A stretch of DNA of 64,000 nucleotides, from positions 3,753 to 67,752 of the IMG/VR virus record IMGVR_UViG_3300022602_004807; one strand, 5' to 3'. This DNA is from a virus. The translations under genes were made by a program, and so were the position numbers. The notes below the pieces were generated by a model. It ran no database searches, was not told where the DNA came from, and worked only from the letters and a program-made list of their open reading frames with translations. Shown in pieces: positions 31,676 to 57,414 of the stretch (the first letter of the stretch is position 1; each line of letters begins with the position of its first letter).

Positions 31676-31737
31676 TTGACTGTGCCTGTGGGTAGGCCAG
31701 TATAGGTACATCGGAAACATGCTCACTGCCACGGAGC
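31676..31737 (+). promoter_or_regulatory. Sigma70-like promoter + TGCCAC leader hairpin
   Basis: TTGACT-N16-CAGTAT; GCTC-ACTGCCACG-GAGC hairpin over RBS. Confidence 0.65.
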
Positions 31738-31743
31738 CCAACG

Positions 31744-32199
31744 ATGACCAAGATCTCCCCCCGCCGCGCAAAGACCCTCGCCGCCCGCGCCAGCCGTCGT
31801 GAGCTGGACGCCGCTCGCTTCTCCTCCGTCGTGAAGGCGATCACCCACAAGCCGGTGTTCGTCGAAGCCGAAGATGGCCAGCGCATCCGCGTGTGGAGCG
31901 ACTGCACGACCGACGCCGCCGGCCGCAAGGTGATCTCGCTGGACGTGGTCCGCGACGAAGACGTGCGCGCCTGGCTGCTGGGCAACCGGGTGACCTCGAT
32001 CCGCGAGGGCCTGGAGTTCGTCCACGAGAAGTACGCTCGCGGCATGATCCGCGACGGCTTCCTGCGCCCTGACAGCTGCGATCCGCATCAGCTCTGGATC
32101 ACCGACAAGGCCGCCGAGCGCTTCAACCTGCCCCCTGTGATGGGCTGCAAGTTTCCGCCCGCCACCGGCACTGTCGGCCGCTTGGCTCAGGCCGCTTGA
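31744..32199 (+). CDS. Hypothetical protein
   Basis: 151 aa, strong GC3 bias, GGAG RBS. Confidence 0.8.
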   Translation: MTKISPRRAKTLAARASRRELDAARFSSVVKAITHKPVFVEAEDGQRIRVWSDCTTDAAGRKVISLDVVRDEDVRAWLLGNRVTSIREGLEFVHEKYARGMIRDGFLRPDSCDPHQLWITDKAAERFNLPPVMGCKFPPATGTVGRLAQAA

Positions 32200-32209
32200 G
32201 GAGGGCGAG

Positions 32210-33079
32210 ATGCAGATCGAACACTGCCGCGTCCGGCCCAATCCCGACCAGCCCCGCAAGACCTTCGACCGCCGCGAGCTCGAGGACCTCGCGGCCTCCA
32301 TCAAGGAGAACGGCCTGCTCCAGCCGATCACCGTGCGCCCCCTCCATGGGGGCTATGAGATCATCGCGGGCGAGCGCAGGTGGCGCGCCCATGGGCTCCT
32401 GATCGAGCAGGGCTATGAGCCCGCCAAGATCGTGACCTGCAACGTCGTCGAAATGGACGACATGACCCGCGACATCGCCGCGATCATCGAGAACCTGCAG
32501 CGCGTCGACGTCCTGCCGCTCGAGGAGGGCCGGGCGTTCCAGCGGATGCTGGACCTGGGGATGAGCGTCGAGGAGCTGGCCAAGAAGCTCGGCCGGCCCG
32601 TGTGGCGCGTGGAGGAGCGGGTCAGGCTGATGAACCTCGACCCCGGCATCCAGAAGCTGTGCGAGGGTGGCTTTGACCACCATGTTGCCCAAGAGATCGC
32701 CCGCCTGCCCCGCCATGCCGATCAGGTGGCGCTGGTGCAGATGTGGAACCGTGGGTCGATCGTCGGATTCAAGGCGCTCAAGGCGGCGGTGAACGCCAAG
32801 CTCGAAGCCCTGTCCCAGAGCGATATGTTCGGAGACGCCCCGCGCGTCAGCGATGCCGACGTCGAGGTTGTGAGGTCCATGGAAGCCAAGATCGAACGCA
32901 TGGCCGCCCTCGCCGCTGCTGGCTGGAAAGACGGTGAGTGCCTGGTCGCCAGCAAGGTCAGCCGTGACCGCGCCGCCCTGATGGCCGACAAGATCAAGGC
33001 CATGCGCTCTGCCCTGTTCGCCATGGAAGGCGATCTCAGAGCCGCTGCCGCTCAGGCCGAAATCGTCCTCGCCGCCTGA
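32210..33079 (+). CDS. parB: ParB/Spo0J family protein
   Basis: PNPDQPRK.F, GLLQPI.VR, IIAGERRWRA, ENLQR.D, HTH. Confidence 0.92.
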   Translation: MQIEHCRVRPNPDQPRKTFDRRELEDLAASIKENGLLQPITVRPLHGGYEIIAGERRWRAHGLLIEQGYEPAKIVTCNVVEMDDMTRDIAAIIENLQRVDVLPLEEGRAFQRMLDLGMSVEELAKKLGRPVWRVEERVRLMNLDPGIQKLCEGGFDHHVAQEIARLPRHADQVALVQMWNRGSIVGFKALKAAVNAKLEALSQSDMFGDAPRVSDADVEVVRSMEAKIERMAALAAAGWKDGECLVASKVSRDRAALMADKIKAMRSALFAMEGDLRAAAAQAEIVLAA

Positions 33080-33296
33080 GCGTCACGACCAATTCCCGCC
33101 CGCCTCCAGACGGCTTGATCAGGAGGCGGGCGAGCTGTTGGCCGCAGGGCTTTGCGGTTGCTCTCTTTTTTGGGTCAAGGGGCAGAGCAGAGGCGAGCGC
33201 CCCCTCTGCTGAATTTTTCTCGAAGCCTTGAGTTTTTTAAGAGAAATCCGTCCCTCAAAAAGGTCGGAAATAGCCCCTTGAAATACTCGAAAGCAT

Positions 33297-33355
33297 TTGA
33301 CCTGTGTCGGAGATTTCCTACTATAGATTTATAGGAAATAAGCTCTGCCACGGAG
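33297..33355 (+). promoter_or_regulatory. Sigma70-like promoter with operator in spacer + TGCCAC leader
   Basis: TTGACC(33297)-N16-TACTAT; TCGGAGATTTCCTA 33307-33320; CTCTGCCACGGAG 33343-33355. Confidence 0.75.
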
Positions 33356-33362
33356 ACCTAAG

Positions 33363-33551
33363 ATGACCGCAACCTTCCCCTTCAAGAACGAGATGCCTTC
33401 TCAGGAAGCCTTTGACCACATGAGCGATGCGGGGTTCTGCGACTGGTGGGATGCTTTCATTGAGCGTGTGCAGGCGCAGGCGACCAGCGAAGACGAAGTT
33501 GATGCCGCGTGCGCCGCTCGTGCGGACGCTGAAACTGCCCGTGGCTGGTGA
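33363..33551 (+). CDS. Hypothetical protein
   Basis: 62 aa acidic, RBS. Confidence 0.7.
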   Translation: MTATFPFKNEMPSQEAFDHMSDAGFCDWWDAFIERVQAQATSEDEVDAACAARADAETARGW

Positions 33552-33562
33552 GGGAGGCGACC

Positions 33563-33829
33563 ATGATGCCAGTCGGCCAAATCTTCACCCATCGTATCCT
33601 GCGCCCTTGGGTCTCCGAGGGTGTCAGGGGCACCGAGATCGCCACCTACCGCTGCCGGGTGACCCGGCGCAACCAGTGGCAGATCGAGTTCGAGAACCTT
33701 GAGCGCCTTTCGGTCGAGGATCCCCTGCCCGGCACCGATGGCGCCCTGTCCCCCGGCGGCGGCATGACCGTCGCCTGGGCGAAGAAGCTGATCGAACGTG
33801 GGCTGATCCTGCTTGAGGAGGGCCTGTGA
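33563..33829 (+). CDS. Hypothetical protein
   Basis: GGAGG RBS, coupled to next gene. Confidence 0.7.
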   Translation: MMPVGQIFTHRILRPWVSEGVRGTEIATYRCRVTRRNQWQIEFENLERLSVEDPLPGTDGALSPGGGMTVAWAKKLIERGLILLEEGL

Positions 33830-34557
33830 TGCTCGACCTGTTCTCCCCGCTCAAGACGGACGTGCGGCTGGCCAAGCGCCCGCTGCGCGTCTTAATTGGC
33901 TGCGAGTTCTCCGGCGTTGTTCGGAGAGCCTTCGATGCCCTGGGCCATGATGCTTGGTCCTGCGACCTGCTCAAGGCCGAAGACGGCTCCAACAAGCATC
34001 TGGTGGGCGACGTCCGCCAATTCCTCGGGATGGGCTGGGACCTGCTGTTCCTCGCTCATCCGCCCTGCACCCGCCTCTGCCTGTCTGGCGTTCGGTGGCT
34101 GCATGTTCCGCCGCCGGGCAAGACGCTCGAGCAAATGTGGGCCGAGCTCGACGAGGCCGCAGCTCTGTTCTCGGACTGCTGGAACGCGGACCAGACCCAC
34201 GGGATTCCGCGAGTGGCTGTCGAGAACCCGATCATGCACCGCCATGCGCGGGAGCGGATCAAGAACTACCCGACCAAGGACCAGATGCAGACCGTCCAGC
34301 CATGGTGGTTTGGGGAGGAGGCCTTCAAGGCGACAACCCTGCACCTCAAGGGCCTACCTCCCCTCGCTCCCACCCAGCGGCTCGAACCGCCCAAGCCCGG
34401 CTCTGCCGAGCATAAGGCGTGGTCTTGGATCCATCTTATGCCGCGCGGCCCCAATCGCTGGAAGCTGCGGAGCCGGACGTTTCAGGGCGTTGCCGAGGCC
34501 ATGGCGATGCAGTGGGGCGGCTACGTCGAAGAACTCAACCTGTTTCGGAGAGGTTGA
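33826..34557 (+). CDS. Phage C5-cytosine DNA methyltransferase-like protein
   Basis: VLIGCEFSG, WSCD, HPPC, ENP, RSRTF.GVA.AMA.QW motifs. Confidence 0.8.
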   Translation: MMLDLFSPLKTDVRLAKRPLRVLIGCEFSGVVRRAFDALGHDAWSCDLLKAEDGSNKHLVGDVRQFLGMGWDLLFLAHPPCTRLCLSGVRWLHVPPPGKTLEQMWAELDEAAALFSDCWNADQTHGIPRVAVENPIMHRHARERIKNYPTKDQMQTVQPWWFGEEAFKATTLHLKGLPPLAPTQRLEPPKPGSAEHKAWSWIHLMPRGPNRWKLRSRTFQGVAEAMAMQWGGYVEELNLFRRG

Positions 34558-34559
34558 GT

Positions 34560-34934
34560 TTAGGGAGCAGGCTCAGCTGGCGGGGGCGCGACGGCCTCGA
34601 TCTTCGCTTTGATAGCTGCAAGTTCGTCAGCAGCCTGGCCGATGCGCGGATCTTCCTGACCGGCGGCGGCGAGCTTGGCGGCCACGTCGGCATGAAGGGC
34701 GATGAGGCGATCCACGGCGGGAGCGATGCCGGAGACTGTGGCCTGGAGATCGTCGATGCGAGCCATGATGTTGGTCCTTTCAGCGTGAAGGGTGTTGGCA
34801 AACTCCTCTCGGAGCGCCGTGATGATCTGGGCTATTTCGCCGTGAACGCGGTCGATGTCGCCGGTGGGAACCAGCCGAGGCCGTTGTAGGCGGCAACGGA
34901 AGCAGGTGCAGGCGTCGGCGTGCTCGTCCTGCAT
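34560..34934 (-). CDS. Hypothetical coiled-coil protein with CxCxxC
   Basis: AAGGA RBS; 124 aa. Confidence 0.6.
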   Translation of the reverse strand: MQDEHADACTCFRCRLQRPRLVPTGDIDRVHGEIAQIITALREEFANTLHAERTNIMARIDDLQATVSGIAPAVDRLIALHADVAAKLAAAGQEDPRIGQAADELAAIKAKIEAVAPPPAEPAP

Positions 34935-34950
34935 CTCGACAATTCCTTGA

Positions 34951-35280
34951 TTATCGCTCGGGCGGATAAGGCGCGTAGGGAGCCGGCGGGCGGGTCGGTG
35001 GTCCAAGGGCAATCTTGGTCGCTTCCTCGCCCTTCAACCAGCGCCGGACCTCTTCCGCGAAAATGTTGTCGGCCAAAGGGTCGATGAAGACCCGATCCTT
35101 GGGTGTATGCCGCAGGGCCGGCAGGGTGTCGGCGCTGAGGTACTGCCAGATGACGGTGTAGGCGAGCCGCTCGCTGCGATTCCTGAGATCCTGGAACAGG
35201 CGCGTGCGGCGTTCGTGCGACTGCACGATCAACCAGAGCGGCTTGCCGTCATCCGGCAGGGAGCTGGCAAAGCTGGTCAT
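34951..35280 (-). CDS. Hypothetical protein
   Basis: 109 aa, ATGA-coupled to upstream gene. Confidence 0.55.
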   Translation of the reverse strand: MTSFASSLPDDGKPLWLIVQSHERRTRLFQDLRNRSERLAYTVIWQYLSADTLPALRHTPKDRVFIDPLADNIFAEEVRRWLKGEEATKIALGPPTRPPAPYAPYPPER

Positions 35281-35465
35281 TCGAGTCCGAGCTCAACAAG
35301 GATTCCGAGAGAGGCGACGATCCACGTCAGGACGATCAGTCCGGCGAGGACGACAATCTTGCGTTTTGGCACCGGGTCATCCTCACAGGGCGACATCGAC
35401 AGTTCCGGCCACCAGCAATCCTGAGCCTTGTAGAGGCTGCCGCAGTGCTCGCAGGGATGCCTCAT
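35277..35465 (-). CDS. Small membrane protein with Cys-rich N-terminus
   Basis: 62 aa, AAGGA RBS, C-terminal hydrophobic helix. Confidence 0.5.
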   Translation of the reverse strand: MRHPCEHCGSLYKAQDCWWPELSMSPCEDDPVPKRKIVVLAGLIVLTWIVASLGILVELGLE

Positions 35466-35482
35466 TTTCCTTGCCCTTGAAG

Positions 35483-35567
35483 TCGGATATATCCGATAAG
35501 CACTTTACCGTGCCTGCCGATATGGTAGATTGCTTTATCGGATTTATCCGATCTTCTGCCACGGAGA
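35483..35567 (+). promoter_or_regulatory. Two operators, promoter and TGCCAC leader hairpin
   Basis: TCGGATATATCCGA 35483-35496, TCGGATTTATCCGA 35538-35551, TTTACC-N16-TAGATT, TCTTC-TGCCAC-GGAGA. Confidence 0.8.
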
Positions 35568-35574
35568 CAAGACC

Positions 35575-35943
35575 ATGAAAACCTACCTGCCCATCGTGAC
35601 CTACGGATCCGAGCGGTATTTCCCGGAGACCAAGGTCAGCTACAGCCGCGATGACGCGAAGGACGATGTCTGGACCGGCCAGTTCGACGAGATCCATTCG
35701 GTGATCGAGGTCGACCTGACCACCGGCACCGCCATCGACGTGCTGCCCGAAATCATTGAGGAGCTGGCCTCCCGCTCATTCGCCAAGTGCCAGACGCCGC
35801 ACGACGCCTTGGCCGAGGCCATGGAGGAAGCCGGTCACGAGTTCTACGGGGCCGACGAGCGCCGCCGGGAGCAGCAGCATTGGGATCGCGTCAACTTCGA
35901 GATGCAGCTCGCCAAAGACCGGCGCGCTGGCCTTGAGCCTTGA
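35575..35943 (+). CDS. Hypothetical protein
   Basis: 122 aa acidic; ATG after leader/RBS. Confidence 0.8.
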   Translation: MKTYLPIVTYGSERYFPETKVSYSRDDAKDDVWTGQFDEIHSVIEVDLTTGTAIDVLPEIIEELASRSFAKCQTPHDALAEAMEEAGHEFYGADERRREQQHWDRVNFEMQLAKDRRAGLEP

Positions 35944-35953
35944 GGAGGTCACC

Positions 35954-36721
35954 ATGTCCGCGAAAGAGAACCTCCTCCGCCGCCTGAAGGCGTTACTTGC
36001 CAAGACCGTCGAGAACGGTGCGTCCGAAGCCGAAGCGATGTCCGCTCTGGCCAAGGCCCAAGAGATCATGCAGGCCCACGGCCTGAGCCAAGAAGCGATC
36101 GAGGCCGAGGCCTTCGTCGAGCAGCTGATCGAGAAGCGCGCCGCCCGCAAGTATGCGTGGCATAAGGACATCGCCTATGGCGTCGGCTGCTTCACCGGCA
36201 CCTACCCCTACATGCGCGAGGGCTATCAGGTCGTGTTCGCCGGGCGCGAGACCGCGACGATGTTCGCTGGCTGGCTCTGCGATGCGCTCGACGGCTTTGT
36301 GACCCGCAACGCCCTCGCCTACCTCAACGAGGCAGGTGGGGCGCGGGCCACCGGCACCAAGCGCAGCGTCTATGTGCCCGGGCAGGCCGATATGTTCGGC
36401 TCGTCCGCAGTCGTGAAGCGTGACCCCGAGACCGACTACCAGCGCCAGCAGCGCCTGCAGGCTTTCGCGATTGGCGTGTGCCAGCGCGTCACCCAGCGGC
36501 TCCGCGATCTGTCGACCACCGAATCCATGGAGCAGCGCAGGCTCGCCCAGAAGCGCCTGGAGGAGCAGGGCATGTCGTTTCAGCAGCGACGCAGCCATGG
36601 CCCTGACATCCGAGACCGTGCCGCCTACGAGGCCGGGCAGCGCGTTGGCGACAAGGCCACGTTCAACCGCCCGGTGGGTGGTGGAGCCGGTGGCGCACCA
36701 CTTCAGATCGGGAGGGCATGA
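35954..36721 (+). CDS. DUF2786-like protein
   Basis: LRRLKALLAKT..NGASEAEA.SA..KA.E.M..HGL N-terminal motif. Confidence 0.8.
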   Translation: MSAKENLLRRLKALLAKTVENGASEAEAMSALAKAQEIMQAHGLSQEAIEAEAFVEQLIEKRAARKYAWHKDIAYGVGCFTGTYPYMREGYQVVFAGRETATMFAGWLCDALDGFVTRNALAYLNEAGGARATGTKRSVYVPGQADMFGSSAVVKRDPETDYQRQQRLQAFAIGVCQRVTQRLRDLSTTESMEQRRLAQKRLEEQGMSFQQRRSHGPDIRDRAAYEAGQRVGDKATFNRPVGGGAGGAPLQIGRA

Positions 36722-37002
36722 TGACTGTGACCGAAATGGACGCAGACCTTGAGGACGCGCGCAGCTTCCTCTCGGTCACCCGGTTCGAGGTTCGCCGTTG
36801 CGAGCACGAGACCGTGACCAGCACCGCCCTGTGGGTGTTCGACGATGGCCGACAGATAGCCTGCATCGTGCGCAACGAGGGCAGCCTGTCCAAGTACCGC
36901 TGGCGCGCGAACAAGATGCGCAACAGCCAGCCGATCACCGAGATGCCGTTCCAGACGCTTGCGGGCGCCTGTGCCTACGTCATCGACTGCTGCGGGAGGT
37001 GA
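36718..37002 (+). CDS. Hypothetical protein
   Basis: Coupled ORF, GGGAGG RBS. Confidence 0.7.
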   Translation: MMTVTEMDADLEDARSFLSVTRFEVRRCEHETVTSTALWVFDDGRQIACIVRNEGSLSKYRWRANKMRNSQPITEMPFQTLAGACAYVIDCCGR

Positions 37003-37004
37003 GC

Positions 37005-37208
37005 ATGGCTTGGGCTATCGAAACTCGCTTCACCTACGGCTGGGAGAACGTCTTCCGTGAGGATGAAAAGCTGGTCACCTTTCCAAATTTTGAGGCGGCC
37101 GAGGACGCGCTCGACGATCACCTTGCCGATCTGCACGACGCCTTCCTGCGGCGTGAGATCGAAGATTACAGCGCAGGCGACTATCGCATCAGGGAGGTAG
37201 AGCCATGA
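37005..37208 (+). CDS. Hypothetical protein
   Basis: MAWAIETRF..GWENV; GGAGG RBS. Confidence 0.7.
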   Translation: MAWAIETRFTYGWENVFREDEKLVTFPNFEAAEDALDDHLADLHDAFLRREIEDYSAGDYRIREVEP

Positions 37209-37408
37209 CCCCATGGATCGCCTGCGGCACCGTCCTGTTCCTGATGCCCATCGTGCTTTGCTACTGGCGCTACGGGTCGATCGACGATGAAGCGTTCACC
37301 CGCTTCATGGCCGGCCTGTCTCTGCTCGACCATCTGCGACTGGTCAATGTCGTTCGCCTGGGCGGCGCAATGGCGCTGTTCGGGTTCCTGTCCCTGTTTC
37401 TTCGCTGA
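37205..37408 (+). CDS. Small membrane protein
   Basis: 67 aa, two hydrophobic segments. Confidence 0.65.
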   Translation: MTPWIACGTVLFLMPIVLCYWRYGSIDDEAFTRFMAGLSLLDHLRLVNVVRLGGAMALFGFLSLFLR

Positions 37409-37418
37409 GGAGGAACCG

Positions 37419-37610
37419 ATGCCCAAGAAGAAAGTCGTCGAAGTCATTGTCAAGCTGCGTGTACCGGCGTGGATGACCCCAAGCGAGGCGCGGCGCGAGG
37501 TGCGCACCCTCATCAATGAGCAGTGCAACTTCATGGCCTACGGGCCGGGATATGCCGATGTGTGCGTCCGAGCAGCCAGCGTTAAGTCAGCCAAGAGGAG
37601 CGCAAAATGA
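37419..37610 (+). CDS. Hypothetical protein
   Basis: GAGGAGG RBS. Confidence 0.7.
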   Translation: MPKKKVVEVIVKLRVPAWMTPSEARREVRTLINEQCNFMAYGPGYADVCVRAASVKSAKRSAK

Positions 37611-37861
37611 AAGTTTATCGGATCATCTGGCACAGCGACGTCGTCGACTTCTACGAGACGCTGGCCGAGGCCAAGCGCGCTGCCCGGGTGGGCGCTGACC
37701 GTGTTCGCATGACCGTCGAGGTCGACGAGGTCTTCGTCCGTCAGGACATCGGCGGGCGTGAGCTCGCGGTGAAGATGCTCAACGACGCCGGTTGGATCGA
37801 GCGTGAGCAGGTGGTGTTCACCGCCCGGCCTAAAGACCCAGCCGACATGGAGCCGGCGTGA
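37607..37861 (+). CDS. Hypothetical protein
   Basis: Coupled ORF, GAGGAG RBS. Confidence 0.7.
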   Translation: MKVYRIIWHSDVVDFYETLAEAKRAARVGADRVRMTVEVDEVFVRQDIGGRELAVKMLNDAGWIEREQVVFTARPKDPADMEPA

Positions 37862-37910
37862 ACCCAGCGGCGTGTCGGAGCTCTGGCCCCGGCAGTCCGA
37901 AGGGCTCACC

Positions 37911-37927
37911 CTTCATCTGCCACGGAG
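37911..37927 (+). promoter_or_regulatory. TGCCAC leader hairpin over RBS
   Basis: CTTC-ATCTGCCAC-GGAG; TCTGCCACGG starts 19 nt before ATG 37935. Confidence 0.7.
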
Positions 37928-37934
37928 AACAACC

Positions 37935-38294
37935 ATGACGAAGCGATACTGGAAAGTGTGCGAGCGATGCGGCTCGCGGGAAGTGACAAGCGACTGCCTC
38001 GCCCGATGGTGCGATGAGGCGCAGGAATGGGAAGTCAGCTCGCATCTGGATTTCAAAAACTGCGAGAGCGACGAGTGCATGGGCGATGAAACCGAGCTGG
38101 AAAGCCTTGAGATCATCCCCGATTGCGTCATCCCGGAAGCCATCCGCAAACTCGGCTGGTTCCTGAATGAGTGTGAGGATGGGACCTTCGCCGTGAAGAA
38201 CTTTCACGGCGATCCCGATGCAACAGGACCCTTCAGCCAACTCGCGGACGCCTACCTGTGGGCCCGGGCCAATCAGGAGAAAGCTGATGCCTAA
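37935..38294 (+). CDS. Zinc-ribbon-like hypothetical protein
   Basis: CERCGS.EV..D..A.W....Q.W..C...C. Confidence 0.75.
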   Translation: MTKRYWKVCERCGSREVTSDCLARWCDEAQEWEVSSHLDFKNCESDECMGDETELESLEIIPDCVIPEAIRKLGWFLNECEDGTFAVKNFHGDPDATGPFSQLADAYLWARANQEKADA

Positions 38295-38478
38295 GTTCTT
38301 CGTCACCCTGTCCTACGACGTGCGGTTCACCAAGAAAATCTTCGTCGAAGCCGACGATGAAGATGATGCAATCGACCTTGTCGAGGAGGAGTACGACCTC
38401 GACCCCGATGAGCTCGACGAGTGGGATCGCCACGACTGCACCCGCAACGCCTCAGAAGTGGAGGAAGCTGATGCCTGA
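38287..38478 (+). CDS. Small acidic protein
   Basis: VEADDEDDAI motif; RBS. Confidence 0.7.
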   Translation: MPKFFVTLSYDVRFTKKIFVEADDEDDAIDLVEEEYDLDPDELDEWDRHDCTRNASEVEEADA

Positions 38479-38893
38479 ATACCGCTTCATGATCGGCGAA
38501 AGCCGACGCTGCTACACCTACCTGACCATCGAGGCCGAGACCGACGAGGCCGCTGTCGAGCAGGCGAAGAAGGCCTACCTCGACTACAAGCCGCAGCGGA
38601 TACCCGACACGGTGACCGACGAAGCCGACGGCGATGTCACGATCACAGTCGACCGCATGGACGGTGGCAAGCTCGACGAGGAGATTGCCTACCTCCAGTT
38701 CGCCCGCGAGCGCCCCTACTCGTGGGAGGCTATCCCGCTGGCTGAGCTGTGCCGTGACCTGTGGGCCTTCATCGAAAATGGCGCAACCCCGTCTTTCGAG
38801 AGCGCGGAGTTTTTCAAGCTGCGCGCTCGATACCGCCTGCTGCAGTCAAACGAAACCTTTGTCCCTGAGCCAGAGGAGGCCACCCATGGGTGA
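38471..38893 (+). CDS. Hypothetical protein
   Basis: IEAETDEAA motif related to previous gene; RBS. Confidence 0.7.
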   Translation: MPEYRFMIGESRRCYTYLTIEAETDEAAVEQAKKAYLDYKPQRIPDTVTDEADGDVTITVDRMDGGKLDEEIAYLQFARERPYSWEAIPLAELCRDLWAFIENGATPSFESAEFFKLRARYRLLQSNETFVPEPEEATHG

Positions 38894-39317
38894 ATATGTT
38901 TGGACTACCTACACCTTCGGCGGAAAGCTGAAAGCCAGTCTGGCAGCCTCTCTGGATGACCTAGAGAAGGATTTCGAGAGCGTCGATACCCTCGACAGCG
39001 GCGTCCGCGTTCTAGCCGGTCAGTGCAACTACGGCTTTCACAAAGAGTTGGAGACTTTTCTGACCGAGAACAAGCTAACCTACGCCGTTCACTGGTGCAC
39101 GGCGCTGGGGGTTTTTCCTAGCGGGCTTCGCTCCTATGTGCCTGGTCGACGCTACGAGGAGTTCGATGCCAACGATGACGGCGACATCGTCCTGACAGCT
39201 GGATTCATCAAGGACAAGATTGAGAAGGGCCTGAAGATCGAGGGCCTCCTGCCGTTCATTGAACCGCCGGAGATCCCTCCCCTCACCCTGATCGACGAAC
39301 CAGCCGCGGTCGGCTGA
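38886..39317 (+). CDS. Hypothetical protein
   Basis: GAGGAGG RBS, 143 aa. Confidence 0.7.
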   Translation: MGEYVWTTYTFGGKLKASLAASLDDLEKDFESVDTLDSGVRVLAGQCNYGFHKELETFLTENKLTYAVHWCTALGVFPSGLRSYVPGRRYEEFDANDDGDIVLTAGFIKDKIEKGLKIEGLLPFIEPPEIPPLTLIDEPAAVG

Positions 39318-39335
39318 TCTGCGTGGCAGCAGAGG

Positions 39336-39367
39336 AGCCCGCCCAGAGAGATCTGGGCGGGCTTTTT
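39336..39367 (+). terminator. Intrinsic terminator
   Basis: AGCCCGCCCAGA-GAGA-TCTGGGCGGGCT-TTTT. Confidence 0.85.
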
Positions 39368-39368
39368 A

Positions 39369-39455
39369 TCGGATATATCCGACTTAGATATTGTAATTTG
39401 TCGGAAAATTGGCTAGTCTCGTAGCAGGTCAAACGACCTATCTGCCACGAAGGAG
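39369..39455 (+). promoter_or_regulatory. Operator, promoter and TGCCAC leader
   Basis: TCGGATATATCCGA 39369-39382; TTGTAA-N17-TAGTCT with half-operator in spacer; CCTATC-TGCCAC-GAAGG. Confidence 0.78.
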
Positions 39456-39464
39456 ACTAGACCA

Positions 39465-39716
39465 ATGGCCCACCATCACTGCCTCACCGTCCACGGCGCC
39501 AAAGACATCCGCCTGACGTTCAAAGAGCAACCTGACTTTCGCATCGTCAAGATCTACCTCGACGACGAGGGGAACGATTATGACCCGGTCGCCGCCCTGT
39601 TCTTCGATGACGTCGCTGACGGTCGTCTGCAGCGGGCCATCGAGGCGTTCAACGCCATCATGAGCGAGCCAGTCGCCCCGACCATGGCCGAGGCTTTCGA
39701 GACGGAGGACGCATGA
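39465..39716 (+). CDS. Hypothetical protein
   Basis: 83 aa, AAGGAG RBS. Confidence 0.75.
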   Translation: MAHHHCLTVHGAKDIRLTFKEQPDFRIVKIYLDDEGNDYDPVAALFFDDVADGRLQRAIEAFNAIMSEPVAPTMAEAFETEDA

Positions 39717-39979
39717 TGTCCGTCTATCTCGATCACCAGAACTGCATTCAGGTCGACGTCGTCATCGAGCGCGCGATCCAGAAAGCTGCCTTCGAGTTCC
39801 GCTCGTGGACCAAGCTGTTCCCCGGCAAAAAGCGCTACACCGAATGCCTGTCCGACGCGCTGGTCGAGGAACTCGACTATGCGCTCGGAGCCCGTGCCAA
39901 TGCCCTTGGTGACCTGCCGGTCGTGCTGGTCGGCATGACCTGGGATGGTGTCCCGCAGTACGTCGCACAGGGAGCCTGA
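39713..39979 (+). CDS. Hypothetical protein
   Basis: Coupled ORF, GGAGG RBS. Confidence 0.7.
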   Translation: MMSVYLDHQNCIQVDVVIERAIQKAAFEFRSWTKLFPGKKRYTECLSDALVEELDYALGARANALGDLPVVLVGMTWDGVPQYVAQGA

Positions 39980-39982
39980 GCC

Positions 39983-40207
39983 ATGACCGAGAAACCCGAT
40001 CCACACTGCCTTGAGGGCGGTTTTCATGACTATCTGGGCGACGGCGTCTATGCGTCCTACGACGGTTATCACATTTGGCTCGCAGCCAACGATCACCGCA
40101 ACAAGGTGGTCGCGCTCGAGCCCGGCGTGTTTAGGAGACTGCTGAACTACAAGGCTCGGCTCGACGCAGAGATTGCGCGATCCGTCATCAAAGCTTCGGA
40201 GGGCTGA
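39983..40207 (+). CDS. Hypothetical protein
   Basis: YLGDGVYA.YDGY.IWL...VALEP motif common in phage small proteins. Confidence 0.75.
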   Translation: MTEKPDPHCLEGGFHDYLGDGVYASYDGYHIWLAANDHRNKVVALEPGVFRRLLNYKARLDAEIARSVIKASEG

Positions 40208-40328
40208 CCATGCAGGCCACCCTCTCCATCCTCTGGCAGGTCGGCGTCATCGCCCTGCAAGCCGCAGCCCTCGGCTGCTTCCTGTCTGCCGTCGCTATCG
40301 TGCCGATCCTCTTTGGAGCCGTGCTGCA

Positions 40329-40547
40329 ATGAGTGACCTGCTCTACCTGATGGATGCCAGATGCGTGCTGTCGTGGGCGTTCAAGCGCCTGCGGGAGCGC
40401 CCCGATCTGGTCGAGCGCGAGATCGGCTACTGCATGGCCAGGATCGACCAGCACCTGCAGCATGGTTCGCCCCGCGACATGACGATCACGCACGAGGTCA
40501 ACGGCGATCAGGTCGTCATCAGACTCGCTCGCAAGCGCGCCGGATAA
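40329..40547 (+). CDS. Hypothetical protein
   Basis: 72 aa, ends before terminator. Confidence 0.55.
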   Translation: MSDLLYLMDARCVLSWAFKRLRERPDLVEREIGYCMARIDQHLQHGSPRDMTITHEVNGDQVVIRLARKRAG

Positions 40548-40572
40548 TCCTCCCGCGACACGCGCCTTGAGC

Positions 40573-40605
40573 AACCCGGAAATCTTATTGGTTTCCGGGT
40601 TTTTT
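40573..40605 (+). terminator. Intrinsic terminator
   Basis: AACCCGGAAA...TTTCCGGGTT-TTTT. Confidence 0.85.
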
Positions 40606-40607
40606 AT

Positions 40608-40681
40608 TTGCTTTCTTGTCGGATATTTCCTACAATCAGAAGGTCGGAAAACAGAATATCCGACAGCATCTGCCACAGGAG
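40608..40681 (+). promoter_or_regulatory. Sigma70 promoter with operator in spacer + TGCCAC leader
   Basis: TTGCTT(40608)-N17-TACAAT(40631); TCGGATATTTCCTA 40619-40632; TCTGCCACAGGAG 40669-40681. Confidence 0.8.
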
Positions 40682-40687
40682 ACAGTT

Positions 40688-41854: not shown

Positions 41855-41903
41855 CGCAGCGCCGGAGGGGCCCGTGTGGCCCCTCTATCGGTGCGCCTCT
41901 GCA

Positions 41904-41917
41904 CCTTGCCACGAAGG
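41904..41917 (+). promoter_or_regulatory. TGCCAC leader hairpin
   Basis: CCTT-GCCACG-AAGG perfect stem over RBS of methyltransferase gene. Confidence 0.65.
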
Positions 41918-41926
41918 AACTCCACC

Positions 41927-42664: not shown

Positions 42665-42676
42665 AGGAGCCAGCCT

Positions 42677-43063: not shown

Positions 43064-43065
43064 AA

Positions 43066-43099
43066 GCAAAAACCCCAGCCGGTGAAGGCTGGGGTTTGC
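43066..43099. terminator. Terminator-like hairpin (possibly bidirectional)
   Basis: AAACCCCAGCC-GGTGAA-GGCTGGGGTTT. Confidence 0.7.
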
Positions 43100-43344: not shown

Positions 43345-43384
43345 CATTGTGCCCTGTCGGTGATCCCCGACCGCAGAAGGTCCA

Positions 43385-48227: not shown

Positions 48228-48720
48228 TAAACTCGGGGTGAAGCCGGGCGCGCTCGAAGACCATCAGGCCCAGCGCGTCCGCCTCGTCGTCGGTGCTGAC
48301 ATTCCAGCCCCTTGCGGCGCACTCCTCGCGCGATTGGGCCTTGAGCCATTTCCGGCGCTCTGGCTTGAGCAAGGTGCGGGGTGCGTTCGCCTGCCCGAGG
48401 AACCGCTTGCGCCATTCGCCCTGCGAGATCTCGTTGAGCGGAATGGACCGGCGATAGGCGAGCTCACGGGTGATGCCCATGAGCCCATAAAGGCGGCTGG
48501 CAGCGCTTGCCGTTTCAGCCGAAACGTAGATCCCCTCGACCCCGATGTGCTCCACCCGCTCGGTGATGAGCTTTGCGGTCAGCCAGTCGCGATAGGCCGC
48601 GAAGGTCTGGCCCGGGCTGCCGGTTGGCAGTTTGGCGCAGCCCCAGATCGGGGACTGGTCCGCCGGGCGCCAGATCGCCCAGCCGGTCTTGCCAGCGAGG
48701 TCGAGGGTGAGGATGGTCAT
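48175..48720 (-). CDS. RuvC-like Holliday junction resolvase
   Basis: ILTLDLAGKTGWA, I.VE, W.K.F.G, DDEADALG motifs. Confidence 0.85.
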   Translation of the reverse strand: MTILTLDLAGKTGWAIWRPADQSPIWGCAKLPTGSPGQTFAAYRDWLTAKLITERVEHIGVEGIYVSAETASAASRLYGLMGITRELAYRRSIPLNEISQGEWRKRFLGQANAPRTLLKPERRKWLKAQSREECAARGWNVSTDDEADALGLMVFERARLHPEFSAEGSLFGFEPHAAAGV

Positions 48721-49205
48721 CAGTGCTTGGCCTTGCCCTTGGCAGGCTTCTCTTCGATGGTCTTGATGCCCTGCAGGAGGACCGATTGACCCTCGCGATA
48801 GGCTGCCAGCCATGCCTGCCCAGCAGGAGAGCCAACATCGAATGGGCACTCGCTCTCGGATGCGCCCAACTTGCCCGCCCTGGCCCCTTCCGCTGTGGCC
48901 TTGGCGATGGTGCTTTCCTCGGTCACGGGCTCGACGGAGAACAGATCGAGCTGCCCATAGACAGGCACGTTCAGGTATTGCGCATAGCGGACCATGTTGT
49001 TGAACTGGCCAACCAGCTCATGCTCATCGAGCTTCAGCAGCCTCCGGACGGCATCGAGGTCGGCAAGGACCACACCGTCGGCCTTGGCCTGCTTGCGGGC
49101 ATTCCGGACAGCCGCAGTCGCCTCGGCCTGCTTTTTCTCAGCAGCAGTGATCTGCTTCAGATGGTGTAGGACCAATGGCTCAGTAACATTTGCCTGTTCT
49201 GACAT
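48720..49205 (-). CDS. GapR-like N-domain fused to RMF-like C-domain
   Basis: RNARKQAKADG.....LD.V.RL.KLD; EG.RAGK.G....CPF...AWL..Y..G. Confidence 0.65.
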   Translation of the reverse strand: MSEQANVTEPLVLHHLKQITAAEKKQAEATAAVRNARKQAKADGVVLADLDAVRRLLKLDEHELVGQFNNMVRYAQYLNVPVYGQLDLFSVEPVTEESTIAKATAEGARAGKLGASESECPFDVGSPAGQAWLAAYREGQSVLLQGIKTIEEKPAKGKAKH

Positions 49206-49301
49206 GTAAGCTCTCCTTCAACTTGGCGTTAAGTGCCTGCCCGGCCGTCAAAACCTTGACCGGATTTCCTGTGCTCCTCAGAACGACGGACCTTGACCAA
49301 G

Positions 49302-49724
49302 TCAGGGGTCATGTCTGATATGTCCGACAGGGACGAGAGGAACTGGTGTTGAAATACCCATTCCAACCCCATCGTCAGCTGACTGAGGCTTTGCCGTTTT
49401 CCGACTTCGCCTTGGCCTTACAATGGGGACGTCATCGGCAGGTGATGCCACCTGCTCGGAAGGAGCATGTTGATGTTGCGTAGGAATCGCTTCGAGCTTT
49501 GCCTTACGGGCCGCCAACTCGGCGTCCATAAAGGTGATCAGCTTGTCGTACTGGCGGGGCGTGAGCTGTCGCTTGCCCAGCCCGACTTCGCTCATGAAGG
49601 ATCCGTCCTTCAGCACAAGGCGCCCAAGGTTGGAAACTTTGATTCCAGTGATCTCAACGAAGGTCTCCGCATAGCGCAGGAGGTCCTCCTTGAGCCGCTT
49701 CTCGGCGTCGCGAATGATGTCCAT
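49302..49724 (-). CDS. Cro-like regulator
   Basis: Divergent from CI; E.F...TG...S.LGR....DGSF motif of alphaproteobacterial Cro-like proteins. Confidence 0.7.
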   Translation of the reverse strand: MDIIRDAEKRLKEDLLRYAETFVEITGIKVSNLGRLVLKDGSFMSEVGLGKRQLTPRQYDKLITFMDAELAARKAKLEAIPTQHQHAPSEQVASPADDVPIVRPRRSRKTAKPQSADDGVGMGISTPVPLVPVGHIRHDP

Positions 49725-49725
49725 G

Positions 49726-49752
49726 TCGGAAAGGTTGTCGGAAATTTCCCGA
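49726..49752. promoter_or_regulatory. Operator-like sites in cro/cI intergenic region
   Basis: TCGGAAAGG half-site and TCGGAAATTTCCCGA (49738-49752). Confidence 0.6.
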
Positions 49753-49812
49753 CGAAGCAAGTGGGTCTCATCGAAAATTCTGGAGGAGCACAGGTAATTT
49801 TAGGAGGTCATC

Positions 49813-50481
49813 ATGAGCCGTGCTTATAAGCGCAAGCCCGCGCAAGAGGCTGACGTGACCACGGAAAGAATCCGTCAGCGTCTTGAAATTCTTGGCATAC
49901 CGAACACGACTGCGTCCGAATTGGCAGGGCTCGAGCGAGGCTATCTGTCCGATTTTCTGACTGGCAAAAAGAAATCCATGAACCACACGATCCTGCGGCC
50001 GCTTGCCGAAGTTCTGCAATGCAGCGTGGGATTTTTGATTGGTGAATCGGAAGACATTACCATTCGCGAACGTGCGACACTGCCGTTGGCCGGCGTCGTT
50101 GAAGTCGGCGCCTGGCGCAAATGTGTTGTTGCTGCGAAGCCGTCCGAACTCCTGGCGCTTCCGAACTGGCCCGCTGAAGATCAGGCGGTTTACGAAGTGC
50201 GCGGATCCGGCGCAGACAGCGAAGCTCCGGATGGCTCGTTCGTGCAGATTGTAACCTTCCATGAAGGCACAGCTTTGCAGGATGGGAAGCTTTATGTCGT
50301 CGCAGAACGGTCGGACGGGCTTCGGGAACTAACCCTGCGCCGCGCTCGAAAAATTGGCGATAACTTTGAGCTATGGGCCCCGACCAAGTCGGAGGTCATC
50401 GAGCCGATCTCCTATGACCCTGGAAACTCGGCAATCAAGATCATCGGGACTGTAGTGAGAATCTGCTCCCTGACCACCTGA
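49813..50481 (+). CDS. CI-like repressor (XRE HTH + degenerate S24 domain)
   Basis: ASELAGLERGYLSDFLTGKKKS HTH; V.G....DG..V, IIG.V S24 scaffold lacking catalytic residues. Confidence 0.85.
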   Translation: MSRAYKRKPAQEADVTTERIRQRLEILGIPNTTASELAGLERGYLSDFLTGKKKSMNHTILRPLAEVLQCSVGFLIGESEDITIRERATLPLAGVVEVGAWRKCVVAAKPSELLALPNWPAEDQAVYEVRGSGADSEAPDGSFVQIVTFHEGTALQDGKLYVVAERSDGLRELTLRRARKIGDNFELWAPTKSEVIEPISYDPGNSAIKIIGTVVRICSLTT

Positions 50482-50489
50482 ACCTTTGC

Positions 50490-50826
50490 TTGCCCTTATG
50501 GTGAAGACCAGAGCAGTGGGCAAAGACCGTCTATTCCCGCGGGTGAGGCAGGAGACGGTCCACCGGGGAAAGCCTGCCCTTACGGAGCCGACCGTCGCTT
50601 GCGGGGCTTCCTGCCAGATCGGGACAGGATGCTAGAAGAACTGCTTGGTCGAGTCCGATCCTCGCCACGCGCGCGGCTTCCTCTTTCGACCGACCGCTGC
50701 CCTTTGCGCGCATCCCCCCGGTAGGGCCTTTCCCCGTGAACAGCCGGAGGAGCCCGGTTCACGGCGAAACAGCACATGCCAAGGATCGGTTGAGGATCGT
50801 GGGACGGTCGTGGCAGATGCGTTCCG
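50490..50826 (+). ncRNA. Candidate structured non-coding RNA ending in a GUGGCA-loop hairpin
   Basis: Many stems, including long-range CGGGGAAAG/CTTTCCCCG; G-U pairs favour + strand; no convincing ORF. Confidence 0.55.
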
Positions 50827-50832
50827 AGCGGG

Positions 50833-50861
50833 AGATTGCGCCGGGAGATTTCCACCGTCAA
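50833..50861 (-). promoter_or_regulatory. Leftward sigma70-like promoter
   Basis: TTGACG-N17-CAATCT with degenerate operator CGGGAGATTTCCAC in spacer. Confidence 0.55.
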
Positions 50862-50895
50862 GCGAGATTTCCCACATTCGAACTCAATCTTACAT

Positions 50896-50950
50896 TTGAC
50901 AGATAGGATATATCCGACTAGATTAAGGGAACACTCTGCCACGAGGTTCC
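50896..50950 (+). promoter_or_regulatory. Sigma70 promoter with operator in spacer + TGCCAC leader hairpin
   Basis: TTGACA-N17-TAGATT; TAGGATATATCCGA 50904-50917; GGAAC-A-CTC-TGCCAC-GAG-GTTCC. Confidence 0.85.
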
Positions 50951-55375: not shown

Positions 55376-55385
55376 GGAGCGCAAA

Positions 55386-55721
55386 ATGACCGACCAGCAG
55401 AACACCACCGATCAGCAGAACAACCAGCAGCCCGCTCAAAAGCCCGCCGAAGAGCGTCGGCTTGGGTTCGTGCGTGATGCCCTGGCCATGCGCGCGGTGA
55501 TGTTGATCATGCACCAGCAGGGCCGCGAGTTCCCGACCGACGCGGACATGATGGTCTTTTCGAACATCCGGCAGAACATGGAGTTTCTCTACGCCGCCGG
55601 GAAAGACCTGACCGTCAGCCAGCGCCTGCCCGACCACGAGGCCGAGACTCTTGATGGCAAGAAGGTCCCTGAAGCCGAGAAGATTGCCGACGCACTTGAG
55701 GGGATCAAGGCGGCGGCCTGA
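55386..55721 (+). CDS. Hypothetical protein
   Basis: AAGGAG RBS. Confidence 0.7.
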   Translation: MTDQQNTTDQQNNQQPAQKPAEERRLGFVRDALAMRAVMLIMHQQGREFPTDADMMVFSNIRQNMEFLYAAGKDLTVSQRLPDHEAETLDGKKVPEAEKIADALEGIKAAA

Positions 55722-55781
55722 CGGTCAGGCCGGCCACCTCAAGGGGTGGCCCACCGGATCGCATAGGTAAGGAAGTCAATC

Positions 55782-56120
55782 ATGAACATCGAAGTCGCAC
55801 ACACCTCAGAAACCCAGACCGCAGAGCAGCAGAAGCCCGCCCGCCGGCACCTGACCCGGCGCGAGGAATACGACATCACCGGCCTGCTCGAAGCCAAGAT
55901 CCTGTTCGACGAGGAAGGCAGGGCCACAGCCTACAAACCCGGCTACAGCGACTTGCAGATCGCGATTGAGAGCAAGATTCCCGACATCAGGGAGAGCCAC
56001 GTCTATCGGCTGCGCCTGGACGTGTTCGGCCACTTCCCCGCCCCACCCAAGTCCGACACCGTCGAGGGCCGGCTGGCGGCTTTGGAGGCCCGTGTGGCTG
56101 TGCTGGAGCGGCGGGAATGA
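55782..56120 (+). CDS. Hypothetical protein
   Basis: AAGGA RBS; YK.G.SD..IA..HV..LR...FG motif. Confidence 0.7.
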   Translation: MNIEVAHTSETQTAEQQKPARRHLTRREEYDITGLLEAKILFDEEGRATAYKPGYSDLQIAIESKIPDIRESHVYRLRLDVFGHFPAPPKSDTVEGRLAALEARVAVLERRE

Positions 56121-56317
56121 GCCCGTTCACCTATGCCGATCTGGCCCGCTGCGCTCAACGCGAAGTGGGCCAGCGCAAGAAGGTCTATCCGCGCCTGATC
56201 GCCGGGCAGCGGATGACCCAGCAGATGGCTGATCGAGAGACGGCCATGATGGAAGAGATCGCGCGTCGGCTGAAGGAAATGGCTGACGTCGAGGACAAGG
56301 CCGGGAGACTCCTGTGA
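56117..56317 (+). CDS. Hypothetical protein
   Basis: CA.RE...R..VYPR....RM....A.RE.A.M motif. Confidence 0.75.
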   Translation: MSPFTYADLARCAQREVGQRKKVYPRLIAGQRMTQQMADRETAMMEEIARRLKEMADVEDKAGRLL

Positions 56318-56937
56318 CTGCGCACCCCTACCCTCTCGCCTGGCCGCACGGGCGCCCACGACGCGCCCCGAACCAGCGCAAGAACGGGCAGTTCTATGCA
56401 AGCGACCGTAGCGGCGACTATCCGCGCAAGAGAGACCTGACGGTGGCCGATGCGCTTGTGCGTGTGGAAGACAGCTTGCAGCGGATTGGCGCGCGGTGGG
56501 TGGTTATCAGCACGAATATAGAGCCGCGCCTCGACGGCCGTCCGCGCTCCGGCACGGTGCAGCCGAGCGACCCTGCCGTGGCCATCTACTTCGATTTGAA
56601 GGGCAAGCAGCACTGCCTGCCCTGCGACACCTACAAGACCGTGCAGGACAACCTTGCTGCAGTTGCAGCACACATCGAGGCCACACGCGCCATTGAGCGT
56701 CATGGGGTGGCGTCAGTTTCCGAGATGTTCAGCGGATTCGCAGCCCTGCCCCCACCAGAGAAGCCGCCGATGAAGTGGTGGGAGGTCCTTGGTGTTCCGG
56801 CCAATGCGCCCGCGTGGATGATCGAGGCGGCCTACAAGCATGAGGCAAAACTGCGCCATCCGGATGCAGGCGGATCCGCAGAAGCCATGGCCGAGCTCAA
56901 CGCGGCTCGAGATGCCGCAAACAAGGAGCGCGCGTGA
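56314..56937 (+). CDS. J-domain-containing protein
   Basis: YPL.WP N-terminus; WWEVLGV..AYK......HPD.GGS...M..LNAA C-terminal J domain. Confidence 0.85.
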   Translation: MTAHPYPLAWPHGRPRRAPNQRKNGQFYASDRSGDYPRKRDLTVADALVRVEDSLQRIGARWVVISTNIEPRLDGRPRSGTVQPSDPAVAIYFDLKGKQHCLPCDTYKTVQDNLAAVAAHIEATRAIERHGVASVSEMFSGFAALPPPEKPPMKWWEVLGVPANAPAWMIEAAYKHEAKLRHPDAGGSAEAMAELNAARDAANKERA

Positions 56938-57107
56938 TGGCCAAGAAGGAATTTGTCGACCCGTTCCCGAACCTCCCGCGCGGCGGGAACCTGATGCGGC
57001 GGGCCGAGCAAGCTCCCGCGCAGGAGCGGATCGAGAAGGCCAAGGCTGCCCTGGCCGCGCCGAAGCCGAAGAAGGCGAAGCGGTCGAAGGAGAAGGTCGA
57101 TGACTGA
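56937..57107 (+). CDS. Small basic protein
   Basis: 56 aa MAKKEFVDPFPNLPRGG..., AAGGAG RBS; below ORF-track cutoff. Confidence 0.55.
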   Translation: MAKKEFVDPFPNLPRGGNLMRRAEQAPAQERIEKAKAALAAPKPKKAKRSKEKVDD

Positions 57108-57414
57108 GCGGACAACCGAGCAGATGGTGGTGCAGGCGAAGTTCCTCGCACTTCTGCCTGAGAGCGCTCATGCCGAATATGCGCAGGCCATCCAGAAGTT
57201 TGGGGCCGAGGCAGCCGAGCGCCTTGCACGGCAGGAGCGCCGCATCTCCGAGCTTCTCCAGTCGAACAACGAGCTGCTGGAGCGGGCACGATCTGCTGAG
57301 CGTCAGGGTGAGACAGTCACACTGATCAACAGAGGGCTGATCCGGTTGATCAAGCAGATCGCGGTCAATCTCGAAACCACCAGTTCACCAAGCCACGAAG
57401 GAGCACACCCATGA
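57100..57414 (+). CDS. Hypothetical protein
   Basis: RISELL.SNN..LERAR.AE motif. Confidence 0.7.
   Translation: MTERTTEQMVVQAKFLALLPESAHAEYAQAIQKFGAEAAERLARQERRISELLQSNNELLERARSAERQGETVTLINRGLIRLIKQIAVNLETTSSPSHEGAHP

Follow-up and report, generated by a model that had tools for sequence, protein, structure and literature searches.

The DNA analyzed here, the window, is a 64-kb stretch (positions 3,753 to 67,752) of the 67.7-kb IMG/VR provirus record IMGVR_UViG_3300022602_004807, and it comes from a tailed, temperate phage of alphaproteobacteria. The first gene of each early unit has, upstream of its start codon and directly ahead of the Shine-Dalgarno (SD) sequence, a repeated sequence built around TGCCAC, which we call the tag. 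Sequences complementary to it, which we call mirrors or candidate anti-tags, occur elsewhere in the same phage. The copies of the tag listed here are all on the + strand.

31725..31737: tag ACTGCCACGGAGC, before gene 31744-32199 (151 aa, no family); the ParB-like gene 32210-33079 is next
33344..33356: tag TCTGCCACGGAGA, before gene 33363-33551; promoter-like site 33297-33324 upstream
35555..35567: tag, before gene 35575-35943; the palindrome 35538-35551 ends 4 nt upstream
37916..37928: tag, before gene 37935-38294; after hairpin GAAGGGCTCACCCTTC; no promoter seen
39441..39456: tag TCTGCCACGAAGGAGA, before gene 39465-39716
40669..40681: tag TCTGCCACAGGAG, before the DUF932 gene 40688-41854
41906..41920: tag TTGCCACGAAGGAAC, before the N6-methyltransferase-like gene 41927-42664
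43139..43163: tag with a distant SD, before a doubtful 42-codon open reading frame (ORF) starting at 43167
43270..43278: orphan tag, not followed by any gene start; the bidirectional terminator 43316-43342 lies about 40 nt downstream
50935..50947: tag, before gene 50954-51265; promoter-like site 50896-50924 upstream
57392..57405: degenerate tag GCCACGAAGGAG, before gene 57411-57851

Enrichment and position of the tags

An earlier note on this DNA had read these copies as the loops of hairpins over ribosome-binding sites (RBS). All the coordinates it gave for them hold, and the enrichment of the motif is real when the motif is taken in its extended form. The 8-mer TCTGCCAC has 12 matches where 3.05 ± 1.88 are expected, a count reached by none of 100 shuffles. 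The bare 6-mer TGCCAC is not enriched in the window (45 occurrences for 41.0 expected, with 27 of 100 shuffles reaching 45), and neither is the 9-mer when one mismatch is allowed (28 for 24.7). The signal therefore lies in the extended motif and in its position. The exact 9-mer TCTGCCACG is found seven times on the + strand (33344, 35555, 37916, 39441, 43139, 43270, and 50935) and once on the − strand (50809-50817); as a control, the reversed pattern gives 1 and 0 matches in the 67.7-kb record.

Nine full copies lie near gene starts (31727, 33346, 35557, 37918, 39443, 40671, 41907, 43141, and 50937), and these, together with the degenerate GCCACGAAGGAG at 57392, end 11 to 20 nt upstream of an ATG. 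An SD-like GGAG, AGGA, or GAGG follows 0 to 1 nt after the tag in 9 of the 10 start-linked copies, and the consensus of the window is aTCTGCCACGGAG. Each tagged gene is the first after an intergenic gap, genes overlapping the previous stop codon are untagged, and no copy precedes any structural gene of the window. The tagged genes include ParB-like, DUF2786, DUF932, and methyltransferase genes, as well as small genes without a family. Between the predicted −10 hexamer (two of these promoters were also picked up in a second search) and the tag lie anywhere from 12 to 34 nt, whereas the distance from the tag to the start codon is nearly fixed. Hence, the motif tracks the start codon and not the promoter, as had been claimed for it. 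Three tags (37918, 41907, and 43141) have no visible promoter, and a hairpin precedes each of them. Sigma-54, ECF, and T7-like promoters, as well as Chi-like and RfaH ops-like sites, were rejected on spacing and orientation against their consensus sequences. 16S rRNA was also considered as a pairing partner, through its 3′ tail or its 790 region, and the tail does not fit.

These distances also bear on the idea that the tag is a double-stranded DNA site of a monomeric phage regulator, which would block elongation in one orientation, with the mirrors as flipped sites. The model for such sites is the stoperators of cluster A mycobacteriophages, which serve the immunity repressor as DNA sites and keep no fixed distance to an SD. 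Like stoperators, the tags are numerous, asymmetric, intergenic, and oriented with transcription, and copies do exist in both orientations. However, the tight SD lock found here argues against this idea, as the spacing to SD and ATG is fixed within a few nucleotides and the spacing to the promoter is not. Furthermore, a family of palindromic operators is already present at the phage promoters, and we regard a role of the tag as a DNA site as very unlikely.

31654..50918: operator family TCGGATATATCCGA / GTCGGAnAtTTCCGAC, with palindromes at 31654, 33306, 35483, 35538, 39369, and 39400
Further palindromes of the operator family: 40618, 40643, 43254, 49737, and 50903

The operators overlap or follow sigma-70-like promoters upstream of some tags, and they also occur before the cI-like repressor gene. 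Palindromes and promoter-like sites are found upstream of the tags at 31727, 33346, 35557, 39443, 40671, and 50937. This family is likely an operator network, separate from the tag. Operators occur at six or more promoter-like sites, and when placed between the −10 hexamer and the tag they would be transcribed as a 5′ hairpin.

The hairpin proposed to cover the RBS is clear in a part of the leaders. In 66-nt folds, the core lies in a hexaloop closed by its flanks in about 4 to 5 of the 10 + strand copies (31727, 35557, 41907, 50937, and weakly 40671); in the minimum free energy fold of the copy at 35555..35567, for example, the UGCCAC hexaloop is closed by CUUC/GGAG. Elsewhere, the closing stem comes down to 2 to 3 bp of the YC/GGAG flanks. 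Across the family, this stem has 2 to 4 bp, formed by the pyrimidines before the core and the GGA of the SD. The strongest hairpin, and the sole copy clearly stabler than shuffles, is the one at 50937 (GGGAAC.CUC-UGCCAC-GAG.GUUCCC, −13.6 kcal/mol, z −3.1). The flanks had been described as covarying, but both are conserved parts of the motif itself, so their pairing was not counted as covariation and the pattern is not established. The tag hairpin is thus partly right, but it is not established as a feature of the family.

The tags belong to the non-structural part of the phage, whose genes are arranged as follows.

2-30 kb, − strand: terminase, portal, head protease, and tail fibre genes
31.7-43.3 kb, + strand: early block, with ParB-like, DUF2786/DUF7168, and DUF932 genes, at least 2 DNA methyltransferase genes, and many small ORFs without a family
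Convergent to the early block, − strand: replication block, with DUF6362, DnaB, primase, methyltransferase, and RuvC-like genes
49813-50481, + strand: cI-like repressor gene, helix-turn-helix plus S24 peptidase, context and not a component of the tag
From 50954, + strand: second + strand block, with exonuclease, RecT, and other genes

Three further observations concern these genes. In the ORF of the head maturation protease (21125-23197, − strand), the N-terminal residues 64-185 additionally match NUDIX/MutT families. At least three DNA methyltransferase-like genes lie in the non-structural region (33826-34557, 41927-42664, and 46652-47329). A further ParB-like gene (31001-31636) also matches a PHROG annotated as methyltransferase.

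Tags in related phages

The relatives found are prophages of Hyphomicrobiales and other alphaproteobacteria, e.g., Chelatococcus, Devosia, and Pararhizobium. A near-identical phage is present in contigs of four DNA sequencing runs and offers no informative variation, the sole change being a G>A at 43136 in one contig; among the runs listed for this DNA, none is of RNA. Neither a megablast of window positions 31000-51500 against phage records nor a scan with the single ParB protein gave a relative. We examined 124 loci related through DUF932 and, with the ParB alignment A1, 9 loci related through ParB, the remainder of the latter being G001 and G002/G003 again (here and below, L marks relative loci and G whole relative records).

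The DUF932 relatives carry the motif class only in a Chelatococcus prophage (L001 = L045, record G001) and in L004/L005 (G002/G003). In G001 and G002/G003, cCCTACCAC(A)GGAG precedes 4 to 6 gene starts, including those of ParB, DUF932, and DUF2786. The ParB relatives have CCTGCCACGGAG in four copies (L131), CCCCTGCCA(A/G)GGAG in 8 to 9 (L132), TCAGCCACGGAG in six (L133), CTACCACGGAG in 4 to 5 (L137), and tCCCTACCAC in 9 to 10 (L138), with one tag copy in L140 and none in L134, L139, and L142. Whole records hold 15 (G006), 10 (G007), 4 (G008), and 15 (G009) start-associated copies. An exact scan for TCCCTACCACGGAG added the multi-copy phage records G010 to G014. A scan for TCTGCCACGGAGAC gave 119 stretches, and all of the 80 listed are single matches; among 359 loci counted, only L131 has several TG-type tags.

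The variants are specific to each phage. They include CTGCCAC, CTACCAC, CAGCCAC, and CCTGCCAA, with GGAG after each. The CTACCAC variant is found in G001, G003, G008, G009, and G011 to G014, G007 has CAGCCAC, and G006 has CCTGCCA(A/G)GGAG. The loop that had been called invariant is therefore not so, since relatives use TACCAC, AGCCAC, or TGCCAA in its place. Copies in G009 lie on both strands, each co-oriented with its own gene (e.g., at 37372), and the same is true of G003 (4518). Judged from these records, the general form of the tag is YC-[T/A][G/A]-CCA-[C/A] followed by GGAG, with one variant throughout each phage. In the 7.3-Mb Chelatococcus genome that hosts G001, the prophage accounts for 4 of the 5 copies of CTACCAC(N)GGAG, and the pattern read backwards, as a control, gives 7 and 9. 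In the one host tested, the tag thus belongs to the phage as a private signal and does not represent the translation-start signal of the host.

In other DUF932 elements, several gene starts are preceded by repeated leaders of a quite different kind, such as AGCAAAGAGGA after a hairpin in L007, CACCACC..GGAG in L039, and CTTTCCAGGAG and GCCCGCGAGGGCAGGAGG in L042. These differing leaders suggest a general habit of repeated RBS cassettes. The tag could then be a leader cassette acting only in cis, as a translation enhancer, an unstructured standby site, or a 5′ module that stabilizes the mRNA, with no trans factor involved and with uniformity kept by gene conversion or by the cassette-wise gain of early genes. 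The C/A-rich and mostly weakly structured tag would suit such a role. Yet tags that are identical to the letter within a phage and vary between phages point to recognition, and the similarity ends after about 13 nt, which makes a recent duplication unlikely. A purely cis-acting cassette, which would also leave the orphan and mirror copies unexplained, seems to us quite unlikely.

Mirror sequences and a conserved RNA-like element

Two sites of the window carry the complement of the tag and are candidate anti-tags.

39301..39365, + strand: anti-tag module A, a terminator-proximal cognate mirror directly after the stop of gene 38634-39317
50796..50825, + strand: anti-tag site B, TCGTGGCAGAT at 50808, about 330 nt after the cI-like gene

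Module A consists, in order, of a hairpin CAGCCG/CGGCUG, a hairpin UCUGC-GUGGCA-GCAGA (39318-39334), and an intrinsic terminator. Its 73-nt stretch folds exactly so (−45.6 kcal/mol, z −5.57), and none of 200 shuffles is as stable. Site B folds as GGGACG..UC-GUGGCA-GA..CGUUCC, and its TCGTGGCAGAT matches 11 nt of the consensus with one G-U pair; 13 nt of the site are complementary to the leader 43136-43148. The two GTGGCA loops proposed for these places (39323-39328 and 50810-50815) do fold as hexaloops on the + strand, but only the first is stabler than shuffles. To read 50810 simply as a complementary loop was to overstate the case. Site B is equally a perfect tag copy on the − strand, behind a leftward promoter-like TTGACG-17-CAATCT, and the folds of the surrounding 349 nt (50482-50830) lend no support to a structured RNA, with z values of +0.58 (+ strand) and −0.29 (− strand).

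Further copies lie at the junction where the early (+) and replication (−) operons converge, the place of the orphan tag at 43270. Read on the − strand, the tag at 43139 becomes an 11-nt mirror, followed some 40 nt further on by a terminator-like hairpin of that strand (43097-43070). The junction as a whole (43065-43345) is bracketed by this hairpin and the bidirectional terminator at 43316-43342, with two tag copies and no gene but the doubtful 42-codon ORF inside, and both of its strands are much stabler than shuffles (z −4.2 and −5.05).

Several relatives, G001 not among them, carry mirrors that match the tag of their own phage, so that in these lineages the mirror changes with the tag. In G007, a DUF2786 gene that is non-homologous to the window's gene is followed, on the tag strand, by stop-CGTGGCTGA-CTG-terminator, and in G011 and G013 the ParB gene is followed by stop-hairpin-GTGGTAGGGAGG-terminator. 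At the place equivalent to the latter, G012 has TTGGTAGGGAGG between quite different hairpins. In G008, a hairpin loop TTTTCTCCGTG, identified by eye, is antisense to CCACGGAGA and stands before a terminator. Two orphan tags (G007 47724 and G003 25496) give, on the opposite strand, a mirror with a terminator behind it, and both belong to the 3′ region of the convergent DUF6362 operon. The window has its own orphan, 43272, at the syntenic junction, but with the order inverted, the mirror coming after the terminator.

Among the 89 windows upstream of terminators in 11 records, 9 hold a cognate mirror of at least 8 nt. Non-cognate tags give 3 of 356 (two of the three share an 8-mer with the cognate tag), and random windows give 0.2-2.5%. 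On the tag strand alone, a cognate mirror is present in 5 of 42 such windows. We give most weight to this last count because some − strand cases are ordinary tags after a hairpin (e.g., G009 54367). Predicted duplexes of both window anti-tags are stronger with the 10 tagged start regions than with 83 controls (Mann-Whitney p 6.5e-6 and 1.6e-5), a comparison that is partly circular since complementarity is how the anti-tags were identified. Tagged regions take the first four places among the targets of site A and the first two among those of site B.

In CTACCAC-type phages, the orphan tag is part of something larger. In G008, G011, G012, G013, G014, and L162, it sits in a conserved 110-nt element which, on the strand opposite the tagged genes, has four helices: a closing helix, a small hairpin, a hairpin with a GUGGUA hexaloop, and a terminator with a U-rich tail. 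In an alignment of 11 matches (10 distinct rows), 94% of the cells pair and 21 of the 30 pairs change on both sides, against 1 to 8 in slid controls; the alignment was fitted to the model, which favours structure, and these figures count as support and not as proof. Searched against Rfam, the element (L162, L238, and L235) gave only a chance mir-598 match (E 0.93). A covariance model built from it, R1, scores 26 bits at the orphan locus of G001 and 19.5 bits at that of G003. In the window, R1 has a single match, at 39287-39380 on the + strand, which is module A (18.8 bits, with a rough E of 0.004 for the window alone).

Possible roles of the tags and relation to known systems

The tags could be analogues of the start-associated sequences (SAS) of cluster K mycobacteriophages, serving as the target of a phage anti-tag RNA that would pair beside the SD and block the entry of ribosomes. 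We favor this reading tentatively, as a possibility that falls a little short of probable. The tag, laid out as YC-[T/A][G/A]-CCA-[C/A], GGAG, 5 to 9 nt, and ATG, would act in the mRNA, where it lies in the 5′ leader of each early unit's first cistron. The anti-tag RNA would be carried in hairpin loops or single-stranded stretches beside intrinsic terminators. In the window, its source would be the operon 35575-39317, which ends in the loop GUGGCA, and perhaps also the site in the read-through RNA of the cI-like gene. It would pair with the tag over 8 to 13 nt, directly against the SD, possibly starting as a loop-loop contact. This would keep the 30S subunit from binding and damp the translation of all tagged units together, providing feedback in early growth and perhaps, in the lysogen, a second lock next to the operator network. 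What the sequences show are the tags with their placement and phage specificity, the mirrors, the folds, and the pattern across lineages; we infer that the mirror strands are transcribed, that they pair with the tags, and that pairing represses. The tags may then be the address labels of a phage-wide RNA switch, with anti-tags at the 3′ ends of early and replication operons and behind the repressor gene, a wider proposal that we put forward with somewhat more reserve.

Several results weigh against an anti-tag RNA. The mirror of module A, CGTGGCAG, is only 8 nt long, and the match of R1 to this module rests largely on generic hairpin and terminator features. Site B has no terminator and is no stabler than shuffles. 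Counted raw, mirror 8-mers are no more numerous than non-cognate ones, and orphan copies match the tag trivially, being identical DNA, unless their opposite strand is transcribed. Since G011 to G013 are close kin, the mirrors represent only about 3 to 4 independent lineages. Long mirrors can also arise by chance: the 11-nt perfect mirror CCTTGGCAGGG of G006 (oriented position 18344, L143-L145) was rejected because it encodes the catalytic motif PPCQG of a − strand C5-methyltransferase gene. Finally, in G001, a 91%-complete record with 5 tags, GTGGTA is absent from the tag strand throughout the 28 kb of non-structural DNA, and outside likely genes there is no mirror of at least 9 nt. A mirror on the tag strand is therefore not universal. 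Coordinated gating by a phage RNA, the central proposal of the earlier note, thus keeps the support of a start-linked, phage-specific tag, of complementary loops, of matching mirrors in relatives, and of the conserved element with its GUGGUA hexaloop, while G001 stands against it.

A tagged phage without a mirror would also be accommodated if the tag were a translational operator for a phage RNA-binding protein that represses or activates the early first cistrons, like T4 RegA, Mu Com, or Aca2. The strict sense orientation, the fixed distance to the SD, and the uniformity within a phage would fit any private trans factor, and many early ORFs without a family could encode it. However, no candidate was found, and a protein would leave unexplained both the cognate mirrors at terminators and the conserved element resembling a small RNA (sRNA); orphan and mirror copies would be decoys or have no role. 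We consider such a protein unlikely. The window does encode a 161-aa protein (48720-49205, − strand) with a Pfam ribosome modulation factor (RMF) domain (33 bits, for a cut-off of 27.9), which is unusual in a phage. It is conserved in G001 and G007 and absent from G009 and from the complete G008. As a required partner of tag and ribosome it was dropped, having been found in 1 of 5 records (G007).

The closest known parallel to the tags is that of the SAS. In three papers (PMC3203893, PMC11373665, and PMC12699233), these are described as 13-bp asymmetric repeats with an SD core, located 3 to 7 bp before 11 to 19 start codons of non-structural genes and almost always in the sense of the gene. 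About half follow an inverted repeat (ESAS), now read as a SigA-like promoter with an operator, and subcluster K1 has a single reverse copy without a gene. The SAS have been known since 2011 and their role was still called unknown in 2024 and 2025 (PMC3203893, PMC11373665, and PMC12699233); these papers propose no RNA partner. Cluster A stoperators are mentioned in PMC3203893. The window resembles this arrangement in its 10 gene-sense, start-associated copies with 11 to 20 nt from core to ATG and none before structural genes. It also resembles it in the TCGGA..TCCGA operators and promoter-like sites that precede a subset of tags, much like ESAS (PMC11373665). The sequences, however, are unrelated (SAS GGGATAGGAGCCC, window tag TCTGCCACGGAG), and the SAS consensus finds no match in the tag with up to 2 departures. 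The host phylum differs, and the conserved part lies 5′ of the SD in the window but around the SD in SAS. All architectural features of SAS are thus matched but not the sequence, so we take the tag to be an analogue and not a member. A literature search that took in neither subscription journals nor supplements gave no paper linking start-associated sequences to a small RNA.

One cluster K phage can be compared more directly. In Mycobacterium phage Anaya (L360, cluster K1), 15 SAS are on the + strand, and a single one, in the 385-nt gap that separates genes 96 and 97, is on the − strand. Read on the + strand, i.e., that of the SAS genes, this reverse SAS is the 10-nt apical loop CCUCCUAUCC of a stable hairpin (the 116-nt fold has z −4.87). 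The hairpin lies at 29790-29905, in a gene-free gap after a terminator. In the right arms scanned, Pixie has no reverse SAS with fewer than three mismatches, and the single reverse SAS of ZoeJ heads a leftward gene. The Anaya hairpin is therefore present in one lineage only. Its loop is what an anti-tag RNA predicts, as a post hoc match in this single lineage.

Other phage and bacterial RNAs offer partial parallels. The c4 RNA of P1/P7 and the CI RNA of P4 are antisense near a phage RBS and keep lytic functions off, a second layer beside a protein repressor, and the proposed anti-tags would be alike in this. They differ in that C4 serves one operon and the tags would be about ten dispersed targets, and in that the anti-tags here lie in modules of 3′ untranslated regions (3′ UTRs) and terminators. 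The role of C4 is described in PMC8198154. The kinship with C4 and c4-a1b1 that the earlier note had evoked was checked against these Rfam families, which gave 0 matches at the gathering score in the 64 kb. With E up to 1, positions 31000-58000 match in Rfam only rnk_pseudo and SorX, both far below their gathering scores. Without an Rfam match, the system is not a member of C4 or c4-a1b1. A second parallel is that of Hfq-type sRNAs derived from 3′ UTRs, such as CpxQ and SroC, which have their seed upstream of the intrinsic terminator of their own mRNA and act on several RBS targets. The candidate anti-tags share with them a seed directly before the terminator of the mRNA, but their targets would be the phage's own genes.

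These results place a SAS-type signal in alphaproteobacterial phages, where the tag is private to each phage and where tag-specific mirrors recur in modules close to terminators, and they supply a concrete, testable mechanism for start-associated signals. The tagged ParB-like, DUF932, DUF2786, and methyltransferase genes are of a kind usually linked to establishment and anti-restriction, and the proposed switch may therefore time counter-defence. If an anti-tag RNA does act in this way, temperate phages would gain an RNA layer of immunity and of early shut-off, and the SAS of cluster K mycobacteriophages, which still lack an explanation, would be accounted for in the same way.

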